Shown here one piece after another: positions 17,690 through 32,000 of a stretch of DNA of 32,000 nucleotides. The translations under genes were made by a program, and so were the position numbers. The DNA is taken from NCBI GenBank assembly GCA_016933055.1, contig JAFGBS010000034.1, positions 30,001 to 62,000 on the forward strand, in the 5' to 3' direction. The notes under the pieces were generated by a model. That model ran no database searches. It was not told where the DNA came from and worked only from the letters and a program-made list of their open reading frames with translations. This DNA comes from Promethearchaeota archaeon (GTDB lineage Archaea; Asgardarchaeota; Lokiarchaeia; Sigyniarchaeales; Promethearchaeaceae). Within the stretch, counting starts at the first letter, position 1. Every line of letters begins with the position of its first letter.

Positions 17690-19873
17690 TTAATACAATA
17701 ATTCCGTTGGTTCTCCAATAACTTCCACATTTTTGAACAAGACTTTTCTACCCGTGAGTTTTTCACTCACTTCATCCGGTTGGGATCCTCCAATGTATAT
17801 CCTAAATGATCCCGGTTCTAAAATTCGTTTTCCCTGTTCCGTTATGATGCTGAATTGTTGTGGTTTAATTTTGAATTTCACCGTTTCGGATTGACCCGGT
17901 TTGAGAGAAATTCGTTCGAATCCTTGAAGGGACCATCGTGGTATTTTTACAGATGCTTCAAGATCCTGAATATAAAGTTGAACTACCTCATCTCCCTCCT
18001 TTTTTCCTTTATTTTTTACATCTACCGAGACTATGAGGGGGTCTCCCATGTGTATTTCGTCCGAATTAAGGTAGAAATTGTCATAAGAAAAATCAGTGTA
18101 ACTTAAGCCGTATCCGAATGGATATAATGGTTTTTTCTGCATGTACCGATAGGTTCTATTTTCCATACGAAAATCCTCAATTGGGGGGATATCATCGACT
18201 GATTTAGGAAAAGTAACTGGGAGACGACCCGAAGGATTATAATTTCCAAAAATCACATCAGCCACACCTACACCACCTTTCTCTCCAGGATACCATACTT
18301 CTAGGATCGCATCCACATTATGTTGTGCCCAATTTATAGCTAAAGGAGACCCATTCACTAAAACTAGTATTATGGGTTTTCCGAAGTCATGAATCTTGTT
18401 CATAAACTCTATTTGATGCGCGGGGAGACTTAAAAATTGTCGATCTCCATTCCCTCGTAGTAATTTTTCTTCGCTTTCAAATTCTTGCCCAATTCCCATA
18501 ACCATAATCACTACATCACAATCCTTGACAATTCTTTTAGAGATGAACTCCCCCAGTCGATATCTTCGCTTTCGGTAGCAACCCTTAGAATATTTAATCG
18601 TTGTATCATCGTGTACTGCTGATTTTATACCATTTAGGATAGAAATGATTTCATATGATTTTTTGACATAGTTTCCTAGCAATACGTTATTTCCTGCTGC
18701 ATTGGGACCGATAACCGCAATTTTTTTCAAATTTTTCTGTAAGGGCAGAATATTATTTGCATTCTTCAGCAGAACTATTGATTGCTGAACCGCTTTAATT
18801 GCGAGATCTTGATGTTTTTTACTATTCACGACTTCGTAGGGGATCGATCGATGGGGTACCAACTCGGGAGGATCAAATTCACCTAATTTCATTCGTGCAA
18901 GGAATAATTTAGTTACGGCTTGGGTGATTTCCTCTTCGGAGATGAGATGTTGTTCCACAGCTTGATTCAAAAAGATTTTGTAAGTAAGTCCGCAGTTCAA
19001 TTCACACCCATTTCTTACTGCTATTGCAGCTGCTTCAGATCCCGTTTTTACGTACTTATGGTCTTTATAGATATTTCGTATTGCTCCGCAATCGCTGACC
19101 ATGTATCCGTCAAATCCCCACTCAATACGCAAGATTCTCTGCAACGTGGGACTCGCACAACAAGGTTCGCCATTCAAACGGTTATAGGCTCCCATAATAG
19201 AATACGCTTTCGCCTCGATTATGCAATCTCTGAATTGAGGAAGATAAGACTCATACAAGTCTTTATTTGACATCATAGCATTGAATTGGTGGCGCCCTTG
19301 TTCAGGACCGCTTCCTGCTGCAAAATGTTTTGGAGTCGCGATCAGTTTCAAGTATGTGGGATCATCTCCCTGCAATCCTTTTACAAACGCCACTGCTAAT
19401 CTTCCTGTCAAGTAGGGATCTTCTCCATAGGTTTCTTGTCCTCTTCCCCATCTTGGGTCCCTAAAAAGATTGACATTGGGGCTCCAAAAAGTCAATCCGC
19501 CCGTAAAGGGGCTGCCATAAGGGTAATAGGTGTTGTTGATTGCTCGTGCTTCATCCGAAATGGCAGATGCTATTCTAAATTGAAGGTTTCTATTAAACAT
19601 CGCAGCAAGACCAATGGATTGAGGGAATATTGTAGCCTTCTTCTTGGTCATGACTCCGTGTAAGCATTCAGACCACCAATTATACTTGTATATACCCAAT
19701 CGCTTAATCTCGGAAGAGCAATGAACCATTTGGGAGATTTTTTCCTTCAATGTCAACCGAGAAACTAAATCTTCTGCTCGTTCCTCGAATGATTTTGAGG
19801 TATCTAAATAGATGGGCGACTCAAGTTCCATATGGATAATTTGCAGTTCAACCCACTTATAGATTATGCTCAT
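17690..19873 (-). CDS. GH3 glycoside hydrolase (beta-xylosidase/beta-glucosidase type) with C-terminal Fn3-like domain, no signal peptide
   Basis: WWSECLHGV, FWSPNVNLFRDPRWGRGQETYGEDP, KHF, YMVSDCGA (nucleophile Asp), FESEE (acid/base region), YPGEKGG, PSGRLPVTF, YPFGYGLSYT. Alternative start at ATG 19831. Confidence 0.95.
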   Translation of the reverse strand: MSIIYKWVELQIIHMELESPIYLDTSKSFEERAEDLVSRLTLKEKISQMVHCSSEIKRLGIYKYNWWSECLHGVMTKKKATIFPQSIGLAAMFNRNLQFRIASAISDEARAINNTYYPYGSPFTGGLTFWSPNVNLFRDPRWGRGQETYGEDPYLTGRLAVAFVKGLQGDDPTYLKLIATPKHFAAGSGPEQGRHQFNAMMSNKDLYESYLPQFRDCIIEAKAYSIMGAYNRLNGEPCCASPTLQRILRIEWGFDGYMVSDCGAIRNIYKDHKYVKTGSEAAAIAVRNGCELNCGLTYKIFLNQAVEQHLISEEEITQAVTKLFLARMKLGEFDPPELVPHRSIPYEVVNSKKHQDLAIKAVQQSIVLLKNANNILPLQKNLKKIAVIGPNAAGNNVLLGNYVKKSYEIISILNGIKSAVHDDTTIKYSKGCYRKRRYRLGEFISKRIVKDCDVVIMVMGIGQEFESEEKLLRGNGDRQFLSLPAHQIEFMNKIHDFGKPIILVLVNGSPLAINWAQHNVDAILEVWYPGEKGGVGVADVIFGNYNPSGRLPVTFPKSVDDIPPIEDFRMENRTYRYMQKKPLYPFGYGLSYTDFSYDNFYLNSDEIHMGDPLIVSVDVKNKGKKEGDEVVQLYIQDLEASVKIPRWSLQGFERISLKPGQSETVKFKIKPQQFSIITEQGKRILEPGSFRIYIGGSQPDEVSEKLTGRKVLFKNVEVIGEPTELLY

Positions 19874-19911
19874 CCTCCGTACTAAAATCTGGAATTAGGA
19901 CTGATTATCAA

Positions 19912-19939
19912 AAGGGAAGAATTAAATAGTTTTTCCCTT
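19912..19939. promoter_or_regulatory. Inverted repeat bracketing a TATA-like core in the GH3/paralog-1 divergent promoter
   Basis: AAGGGAAGAA-TTAAATAG-TTTTTCCCTT; 9 of 10 arm positions are complementary. Confidence 0.4.
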
Positions 19940-19976
19940 AACAGTCTTTCAAAAAACTCTTTATAGATGATTATAG

Positions 19977-31133: not shown

Positions 31134-31236
31134 CAACTGAATTAACAGATTCAATTATCTTTACTTAACATTTGATCGAAATGATAGCACAGAACGGAAC
31201 GCTAGATTAATGAACAAGATAAACTAACTTTCTTAT

Positions 31237-31701
31237 ATGTCACCACAAAATGTGTTGGATGGAATTGAGCACTTGAAGGAATATCAAGGAAAGGAAATGG
31301 GTCCCTCGAAATGGGTCAAAATAACACAAGATAAGATTAATATGTTTGCGGAGGCGACCGGTGATCACCAATGGATCCACGTAGATGTTGAAAGAGCGAA
31401 AAAAGAATCTACCTATGGTGGTCCAATTGCACACGGTTATTTGACTCTATCATTGATTCCTGATTTATTTTGGGATGTTTTAGAAGTTAAAGGCTTTAAA
31501 ACTGTAATCAATTATGGGACAAACAAGGTCAGATTTCCGGCTCCGGTACCTGTTGATTCAAGTGTCTGCATGAAAGTAACTCTCGCAAATATCACAGAAA
31601 TAAAGAATGGTGTGCAATGTGAATTTAAATGCGTGTTGAATACCGAGAGTGGAGAAAAACCTGTGTGCATTGCTGAAATTGTGTTTCTGTTGATGAACTA
31701 G
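31237..31701 (+). CDS. MaoC family (hotdog-fold) dehydratase, NodN-like
   Basis: FAEATGDHQWIHVD, IAHGYLTLS, NYGTNKVRFPAPV. Confidence 0.93.
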   Translation: MSPQNVLDGIEHLKEYQGKEMGPSKWVKITQDKINMFAEATGDHQWIHVDVERAKKESTYGGPIAHGYLTLSLIPDLFWDVLEVKGFKTVINYGTNKVRFPAPVPVDSSVCMKVTLANITEIKNGVQCEFKCVLNTESGEKPVCIAEIVFLLMN

Positions 31702-31709
31702 CAGTTGAT

Positions 31710-32000
31710 TTATTTTTCTTTTTCTTTACTGTTTTTTAACGAATCAAAATACTGTTTTTCTTTAGCTTTGTGTAAGGAGAGAATTTCTTCCTTTTTCTTT
31801 TCCCATTCGGGTCCATCCAGATTGTAAAATTTCATGAAAAATGCAGAAATTGCTAGCAATATTGCGGGTATAATGAAAATAGCGAACAGAATACCTGTTT
31901 TTGTCAATTCAGATTGGGGTTGTTTGATCACTATTCCCGCAACTTCAACGGGTTCATTAAACCCGAACCTATCTAATACCACGAGGAATACCCATTGCGC
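31710..32000 (-). CDS. C-terminal fragment of an MFS transporter, probably GPH (MelB-like) family; 5' part outside the window
   Basis: The frame is open to the window edge (AQWVFLVVLDRFGF...). The LxxFGF / Q-S..TGI / IPAILLAISAFFMKFYNL pattern followed by a charged tail is typical of GPH C-termini. Confidence 0.7.
   Translation of the reverse strand, partial: AQWVFLVVLDRFGFNEPVEVAGIVIKQPQSELTKTGILFAIFIIPAILLAISAFFMKFYNLDGPEWEKKKEEILSLHKAKEKQYFDSLKNSKEKEK

Follow-up and report, generated by a model that had tools for sequence, protein, structure and literature searches.

A 32,000-nucleotide stretch of the genome of a Promethearchaeota archaeon (contig JAFGBS010000034.1, positions 30,001 to 62,000; G000:C11:30001-62000 in our genome coordinates), hereafter the window, carries four related genes for polytopic membrane proteins, paralogs 1 to 4, which form a lineage-specific array of an uncharacterized branch of the TmAT (transmembrane acyltransferase) superfamily that is mostly found in Asgard archaea. 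The source metagenome-assembled genome (MAG) measures 3.76 Mb and is 91% complete. The fold of these proteins and the superfamily to which they belong are already known; what is new is a distinct 12-helix TmAT branch with a C-terminal module of its own, its expansion in Asgard archaea, and its repeated pairing with genes for cytoplasmic glycoside hydrolases of family 3 (GH3), one of which stands beside paralog 1 in the window. Literature searches turned up no paper that deals with this family or with Asgard proteins resembling HGSNAT. A preliminary description of the window, made from its sequence alone, had proposed a larger glycan acylation or utilization locus, in which the four paralogs and the GH3 gene were grouped with genes for a DUF362 protein, a small membrane protein, a short-chain dehydrogenase/reductase (SDR), a MaoC-type enzyme, and a transporter of the major facilitator superfamily (MFS). 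That over-reading is corrected here: most of the proposed locus is ordinary collinearity.

On sequence grounds the four membrane proteins are true paralogs, being 44–55% identical to one another in pairwise BLASTP/tblastn comparisons; in a MAFFT alignment, paralogs 2–4 are 48–50% identical to paralog 1, with a mean column identity of 61%. Profile searches place them poorly. Matches to PF07786 (HGSNAT_cat) are weak and N-terminal, covering only the first 53–75 of 222 profile positions, i.e., the first transmembrane helix (TMH1); with the cut-off at 22 bits, the score is 25.8 for paralog 2 (profile positions 1–75 of 222) and 17.6 for paralog 1, and paralogs 3 and 4 have no match. All four fall below the gathering threshold of PF01757 (AT3), for which a genome-wide search returned a 19.2-bit N-terminal match to paralog 3 only, and this family appears in the precomputed annotation of a few distant homologs. 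No NCBIfam model matches the paralogs, and a profile built from 70 homologs found no match among Protein Data Bank (PDB) sequences at E ≤ 1. The structural comparison was informative: the paralogs share the conserved 10-transmembrane-helix core fold of the TmAT superfamily, in which both HGSNAT and AT3 proteins sit (Kinniment-Williams et al., 2025; PMC12423673). The label “acyltransferase-like,” first given on the strength of weak Pfam matches, is thereby placed on a structural footing. The 10-helix core (residues ~1–447) is followed by a family-specific C-terminal module of ~120 amino acids (residues 448–570), with two additional hydrophobic helices and a TEGxN loop that is invariant. Structural neighbors in the ESM Atlas, bacterial and archaeal HGSNAT_cat/AT3 clusters of 383–412 amino acids, cover residues 1–456/462 only.

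The acyl-CoA site of TmAT proteins consists of DxxR in TMH1, FxxxxG in TMH2, an Arg in TMH3, a Gly in TMH6, and a Tyr in TMH9; DxxRx10H is the AT3-specific form of the TMH1 motif, and HGSNAT has Asn at the position of the His (Kinniment-Williams et al., 2025; PMC12423673). Paralog 1 bears D10xxR13x10H24, F63, G258, and Y383, together with an H135xE137TIH140 motif. D10 and R13 are conserved in at least 90% of the 70 homologs and are invariant in the four paralogs, while H24, F63, G258, and Y383 are invariant throughout the 70-member alignment, and the AT3-type spacing is exact, with ten residues between R13 and H24. At the TMH2 site, the position five residues after F63 is Ala68 in the four paralogs, with S67 and G70 conserved nearby. 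The predicted helix 85–110, taken as TMH3, contains an invariant Q92 and a lysine, K91, that is conserved among the four paralogs only. G258 lies in helix 248–274 and Y383 in helix 379–397, and by helix order these residues would be equivalent to G514 and Y611 of HGSNAT. In fold and at most of the CoA-site positions, the family thus appears to match a functional acyl-CoA-dependent transferase, and it is AT3-like at the catalytic His.

Conservation extends beyond the putative CoA site. E137, T138, I139, and H140 (paralog 1 numbering) are invariant in the 70 homologs, as are N71, E107, N149, Y172, E246, E357, R359, R373, E444, S504, and E535. The HxETIH region and these other invariant positions have no counterpart in the published TmAT motifs; they are candidates for a role at the acceptor site or in coupling. 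Each of the four paralogs retains all 31 family-invariant residues, so that none of the four looks degenerate. Paralog 4 differs from the others by an insert of ~75 amino acids (residues ~276–352; alignment columns ~277–360), which adds two hydrophobic helices after core TMH6 and brings the total to 14 hydrophobic segments. Its ortholog in the metagenome contig L055 (658 amino acids) and database homologs of 649–658 amino acids match it in length, and the insert appears to mark a stable 14-helix sub-lineage.

Members of the family of ~570-amino-acid proteins were found in Asgard archaea of several groups, in MAGs from Thermoplasmatota and other euryarchaeal lineages, and in a small number of Marinimicrobia/FCB bacteria. 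Database homologs are named Promethearchaeota, Lokiarchaeota, and the like, and some entries carry the label “HGSNAT domain-containing” or “DUF1624.” The distribution within the phylum is patchy, with matches at E ≤ 1e-40 in 19 of 151 sampled genomes, and the host genome of the window has six full-length members among ~22–25 TmAT-like genes in all. In the family tree, a single well-supported clade unites the four window paralogs with three genes of L055. One-to-one orthologs in L055 exist for paralogs 1, 2, and 4 (~80% identical for paralog 2 and ~81% for paralog 4), from which it follows that the duplications predate the split between the window and L055. Paralog 3 is sister to the paralog 2 lineage, and the stretch of L055 that was read contains no equivalent of it. 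Other Asgard genomes likewise carry TmAT-family genes in tandem or clustered groups of two or three (L042, L068, L108 at G095:C1:1062000-1081900, and L109), and local amplification is a general habit of the TmAT family, not one peculiar to the window.

Other relatives were encountered in the course of these searches. A fifth, shorter TmAT paralog of 490 amino acids is encoded ~10 kb past the end of the window (L034:9718-11190, corresponding to G000:C11:70718-72190); it is the best match to PF07786 in the genome (E = 9e-10), and FBPase, GDPD, and adh_short genes lie next to it. In Heimdallarchaeota, each of its clade mates (L028, L030) has a gene for an HpnA-like extended SDR ~70–90 bp downstream. 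In Candidatus Sigynarchaeum springense (L015/L048; G016:C158), a family member lies within an open frame of 888 amino acids, which suggests fusion to an extra domain.

The enzyme encoded next to paralog 1 is a clear member of GH3, with Pfam matches to PF00933 (1e-41), PF01915 (7e-54), and PF14310 (3e-21). Its NCBIfam matches are xylosidase, glucosidase, or arabinosidase models, all below their equivalog cut-offs and none of them a NagZ model; the best, Xyl3A, scores 790 bits against a cut-off of 1250. It bears the KHF motif (TPKHFAAG) and the SDC nucleophile context (GYMVSDC), and no hydrophobic N-terminus, signal peptide, or transmembrane segment was detected in it. These features mark it as a cytoplasmic multi-domain exo-glycosidase of the β-xylosidase/β-glucosidase type, and they bear out the preliminary assignment of this enzyme as cytoplasmic and of the KHF rather than the NagZ type.

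The GH3 gene is the only neighbor in the window whose link to the family recurs in other lineages. A GH3 gene lies within 5 kb of a family member in 10 of 54 clustered non-redundant loci, and again in genome G146. The host genome has four GH3 genes in its 3.76 Mb, and by a rough estimate chance would yield adjacency at ~1% of loci, or about one locus in all. The GH3-adjacent TmAT proteins fall in three separate subclades, comprising the window and L055; G003; and a genus-level clade (G023, G146, and eight metagenome contigs). In the GH3 tree the adjacent enzymes likewise fall in three separate subclades, in each of which unlinked GH3 proteins are nearer kin, with supported branches. Because of this separation, three GH3 lineages each came to adjoin the TmAT family. 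All of the TmAT-adjacent GH3 proteins are without a signal peptide. A link between the family and sugar breakdown is therefore plausible.

In genus g9, the third of these TmAT clades, the TmAT and GH3 genes are co-directional, TmAT first, with gaps of 29–92 bp wherever both genes are intact; they have the appearance of an operon, set within a conserved cluster for sugar oxidation and pectin lysis. This cluster is found at L035 (G023:C11:2569-22500) and also at L059, L063, L069, L070, and L100. Genes for a FAD_binding_2 protein (~690 amino acids) and an adh_short protein are divergent from the TmAT–GH3 pair, GFO/IDH/MocA and ThuA genes lie on the opposite strand, and next come genes for an OYE-type flavoprotein, a conserved 780-amino-acid polytopic membrane protein of no Pfam family, and a 287-amino-acid protein of unknown type. 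Three g9 contigs carry a gene for a PL11 rhamnogalacturonan lyase, whose product at L035, where the N-terminus was read, has a signal anchor. One contig of the clade has an MFS transporter gene and a GFO/MocA gene in the place of GH3. The cluster has the look of an oxidative pathway, of the 3-keto-glycoside type, for sugars or pectin fragments.

The remaining neighbors were followed across ~60 non-redundant loci with a family member, taken with flanks of up to 10 kb from GTDB species genomes, JGI metagenomes, and close relatives, and searched with every window neighbor. L055, whose proteins are 75–81% identical to those of the window, alone keeps the arrangement: the GH3 gene is divergent from paralog 1 across a gap of 406 bp, DUF362 and paralogs 2 and 4 follow, and paralog 4 is divergent from the SDR–MaoC pair. 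No match to paralog 3 or to the small-protein gene was found in the part of L055 that was read, and a gene for an LVIVD protein is inserted. However, the two contigs are collinear far outside the locus, with aminotransferase, Pyr_redox, His_Phos, CopA, and DUF3795 genes in the same order. Conservation in L055 was therefore rejected as evidence of a functional cluster, and the shared arrangement is attributed to general synteny, not to selection for a cluster. In lineages that are no longer generally collinear, the same gene set does not stay linked and the GH3 link alone recurs.

Orthologs of the individual neighbors lead to the same picture. Around the GH3 orthologs of six other genera (46–54% identical), the nearest ~8–10 kb contain neither a family member nor an MFS, SDR, or MaoC gene. 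SDR orthologs in seven genomes of the same taxonomic family have no paralog of this TmAT subfamily and no MaoC, MFS, or GH3 gene nearby, and on this account the idea that the SDR and MaoC genes form an acyl-CoA supply module was rejected. One weak N-terminal TmAT-like match ~2 kb from an SDR gene in L096 is within chance expectation, given ~20 such genes per genome. Neither DUF362 nor MaoC was found beside a family member outside the window and L055 in the ~60 loci. Nor was the MFS gene of the window found beside family members in these loci, although a different MFS gene adjoins the family member of one of them, L056. The small protein, P0124, has no Pfam match and no match at the equivalent position of L055; a 66%-identical copy lies ~26 kb upstream on the same contig (G000:C11:25696-26106), and homologs occur in 21 of 30 relatives, where this conserved Asgard family is unlinked to the TmAT family. 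P0124 is probably a recent local duplicate that was inserted into the array and does not form a core part of it. The DUF362, small-protein, SDR, and MaoC genes are most likely bystanders. The synteny comparison that the preliminary description had called for thus divided its proposal: the GH3 link recurs in relatives, whereas the GH3, SDR, and small-protein orthologs are unlinked elsewhere, and a coherent cassette that also includes DUF362, the small protein, SDR, MaoC, and MFS dissolves outside collinear L055, so that by the standard which that description had itself set most of the cassette is refuted.

With paralogy, fold, motif conservation, the cytoplasmic location of GH3, and recurrent GH3 adjacency as the observations to be accommodated, our preferred reading, which we advance tentatively and with less than even confidence, is that the paralogs are transmembrane acyltransferases that use acyl-CoA and act in concert with glycoside catabolism, the kind of role proposed for NagX. 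Acyl-CoA would enter a pore from the cytoplasm and be held there by DxxR in TMH1, Phe in TMH2, and Tyr in TMH9, after which its acyl group would pass to a hydroxyl or amino group of a sugar at the outer face, with the TMH1 His of DxxRx10H acting as it does in AT3 enzymes. Following the logic of NagX, the enzymes would act on glycosides or oligosaccharides outside the cell, modifying them in the course of uptake and breakdown, the neighboring cytoplasmic GH3 exo-glycosidase would be the downstream hydrolase, and the nearby GPH-type symporter would be a possible importer. We infer the acyl transfer, its acceptor, and the order of these steps from the observations listed above. The preliminary description had offered glycan utilization and surface tailoring as alternatives; the recurrent cytoplasmic GH3 favors the former, and the rest of the cassette drops out of the argument.

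Several points weigh against this reading. No arginine that would correspond to the TMH3 RxxR of TmAT enzymes stands out in the alignment of 70 homologs, where Q92 is invariant instead, and the assignment of motifs to helices follows predicted secondary structure rather than residue-level structural superposition. No GH3 gene lies nearby in 44 of the 54 family loci. Three of the six genomes with GH3 orthologs have no family member at E ≤ 1e-30, and because the closest GH3 orthologs occur in genomes without a detectable family member, the coupling to GH3 is facultative. O-acylation of a neutral glycoside would normally hinder its hydrolysis by a BglX- or xylosidase-type GH3 and would bring no obvious benefit, and the region yielded no recognizable gene for an esterase or deacetylase. 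The acyl-transfer role is itself proposed from fold, motifs, and gene context.

One of these difficulties would vanish if the paralogs were themselves importers of glycosides or oligosaccharides built on the TmAT fold, feeding the GH3 enzyme directly and using four copies to cover four substrate ranges. MurT of Tannerella forsythia (TfMurT) provides a precedent, being described as an inner-membrane importer of N-acetylmuramic acid (MurNAc; PMC7670621) and as a distant relative of NagX and HGSNAT (PMC9007349). All of the adjacent GH3 enzymes are cytoplasmic and depend on import for their substrate, direct import escapes the problem of acylation hindering GH3, and no MFS or ABC transporter was recognized among the annotated genes of the g9 clusters with a TmAT–GH3 pair, part of which is unannotated and which include the 780-amino-acid polytopic membrane protein. 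We nevertheless consider this explanation unlikely: the cytosol-facing CoA-site residues (DxxR, His, Phe, and Tyr) are conserved across the 70 homologs, which would be unexpected if CoA binding were dispensable, and conventional transporters are at hand in the GPH symporter gene of the region and the MFS gene at L056. The proposition that the 12-helix TmAT branch is an unrecognized glycoside uptake device, whether an importer or an acyl-transfer system coupled to capture or uptake, which has been repeatedly recruited beside cytoplasmic GH3, is broader and strikes us as quite improbable; if true, the four paralogs would give one archaeon four substrate specificities.

The array might instead be an expansion of O-acyltransferases for surface glycans or glycolipids that diversifies the envelope, as bacterial AT3 proteins do, with GH3 and the other neighbors incidental. 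Most characterized TmAT/AT3 enzymes modify the surface glycans of their own cell (PMC12423673), and the large number of TmAT-like genes in the genome, the tandem arrays without GH3 at L042, L068, L108, and L109, the majority of loci lacking GH3, and the general collinearity behind the conservation in L055 all agree with such a role. Against it, three different GH3 lineages have independently come to stand beside the family, which chance can hardly explain; among the flanking genes that were scanned, none belongs to a glycosyltransferase, flippase, or oligosaccharyltransferase family; and the recurrent partners, GH3, PL11, GFO/MocA, ThuA, and MFS, are catabolic. A role in envelope diversification consequently appears doubtful, and catabolically coupled acyl transfer is retained as the working explanation.

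The layout of the region is given in Table 1. Genes, strands, and both divergent gaps agree with the preliminary description when checked against the open reading frame list and the Pfam and NCBIfam scans.

Table 1. Features of the array and its neighbors in the window (window coordinates).
Feature	Position	Strand	Remarks
GH3	17690-19873	-	Pfam Glyco_hydro_3 + Glyco_hydro_3_C + Fn3-like
Divergent intergenic gap, GH3/paralog 1	19874-19976		103 bp
Paralog 1 (P0001, 570 aa)	19977-21689	+	TmAT-fold membrane protein, ~12 hydrophobic helices
HxETIH motif, paralog 1	20379-20396		
160-aa protein P0124	21920-22402	+	four hydrophobic segments
DUF362 protein	22636-23778	+	Pfam PF04015 at 7e-49, plus Fer4 families
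Paralog 2 (P0002, 610 aa)	23890-25722	-	
HxETIH motif, paralog 2	25306-25323		
Paralog 3 (P0003, 588 aa)	25961-27727	-	
HxETIH motif, paralog 3	27308-27325		
Paralog 4 (P0004, 662 aa)	27898-29886	-	
Insert of paralog 4	28730-28960		
HxETIH motif, paralog 4	29473-29490		
Extended SDR (epimerase/thioester-reductase-like)	30054-31133	+	Pfam PF01370; 167-bp divergent gap to paralog 4
MaoC-type (R)-hydratase/dehydratase, 154 aa	31237-31701	+	Pfam PF01575 at 4e-25
MFS_2/GPH-family sugar:cation symporter, 3' end	31710-32000	-	convergent with MaoC

The symporter gene runs past the window to G000:C11:63164 and encodes 484 amino acids in full. Every NCBIfam match of the SDR falls under its cut-off. In the DUF362 protein, residues ~190–250 form an inserted 2x[4Fe-4S] ferredoxin domain, and a weak match to Lar_N (E = 3e-4), the N-terminal part of the lactate racemase LarA, gives a hint of an isomerase of the nickel-pincer or redox type.

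Regulatory signals common to the array were sought in the upstream regions of the paralogs, GH3, and SDR in the window and L055, and no 8-mer is common to five or more of them. The 7-mer AGTTCAA occurs upstream of three window paralogs; it is not enriched genome-wide and is absent upstream of other family members, and it was rejected as a shared regulatory motif after its significance was lost on allowing for post-hoc choice. Repeats in the region are almost all due to paralogy of coding sequences, and none is a shared intergenic element. Rfam gave no match in positions 16800-32000, and a bacterial promoter and terminator scan, whose models are not relevant to archaea, remained at background level. 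The array thus yielded no sign of co-regulation, whether a common upstream motif, an RNA element, or anything else.

Asgard archaea are thought to live on sediment organic matter, and glycan uptake and processing are poorly known in this group. The TmAT family described here is abundant among them, is uncharacterized, and has conserved features of its own in the C-terminal module, HxETIH, and TEGxN. Its repeated independent pairing with cytoplasmic GH3 provides a bench-testable hypothesis for its role.

Lysosomal HGSNAT has as its partner glycosidase a GH89 enzyme, located in the same compartment as the acceptor; the partner in the window is a cytoplasmic GH3 enzyme. The paralogs are only 13% identical to human HGSNAT (heparan-alpha-glucosaminide N-acetyltransferase; PDB 8JKV, 8TU9, and 8VKJ), have no N-terminal luminal domain, carry the extra C-terminal module of ~120 amino acids, and have the AT3-type His in TMH1 where HGSNAT has Asn (PMC12423673). 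The analogy to HGSNAT drawn in the preliminary description accordingly survives at the level of fold and fails at that of sequence, where the family profile did not retrieve HGSNAT from PDB and the TMH1 residue is His and not Asn. The possibility that the paralogs are Asgard orthologs of eukaryotic HGSNAT was rejected, as sequence similarity is confined to TMH1 and NagX is reportedly far closer. Because the resemblance is one of fold only, the paralogs are not an Asgard–eukaryote signature. The AT3 proteins (PF01757), such as OafB, OatA, and OacB, resemble them in DxxRx10H, in a conserved Phe and Tyr assigned to TMH2 and TMH9 from predicted helices, and in a presumed acyl-CoA pore, whereas the paralogs score below the PF01757 threshold, show no evident TMH3 RxxR, and lack an SGNH partner domain, and their gene context is catabolic and not one of envelope biosynthesis.

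Two bacterial systems come nearer in their genetic setting. NagX is a putative transmembrane transacetylase of glucosamine catabolism; its proposed role is to acetylate glucosamine in the periplasm and thereby make it available to the pathway for N-acetylglucosamine (GlcNAc). It is a protein of 309–395 amino acids with the whole PF07786 domain, and is 25–31% identical to HGSNAT (Price et al., 2022; PMC9007349). It resembles the paralogs as a TmAT-type membrane protein in sugar-catabolic clusters, and it is the source of the logic of modifying outside, importing, and processing inside. NagX accompanies nagA, nagK, and nagP, whereas the paralogs are proteins of 570–662 amino acids whose GH3 partner is of the non-NagZ type; no nag genes were found among the neighbors scanned, and the combination of a short full-PF07786 protein with nag or chitin genes, which marks a NagX-type glucosamine system, is not seen here. 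TfMurT differs in that its substrate, MurNAc, is an amino sugar acid and its described function is transport. In a comparison made by description only, it resembles the present family in forming an operon with cytoplasmic sugar-processing enzymes, as the TmAT gene of genus g9 appears to do with GH3.

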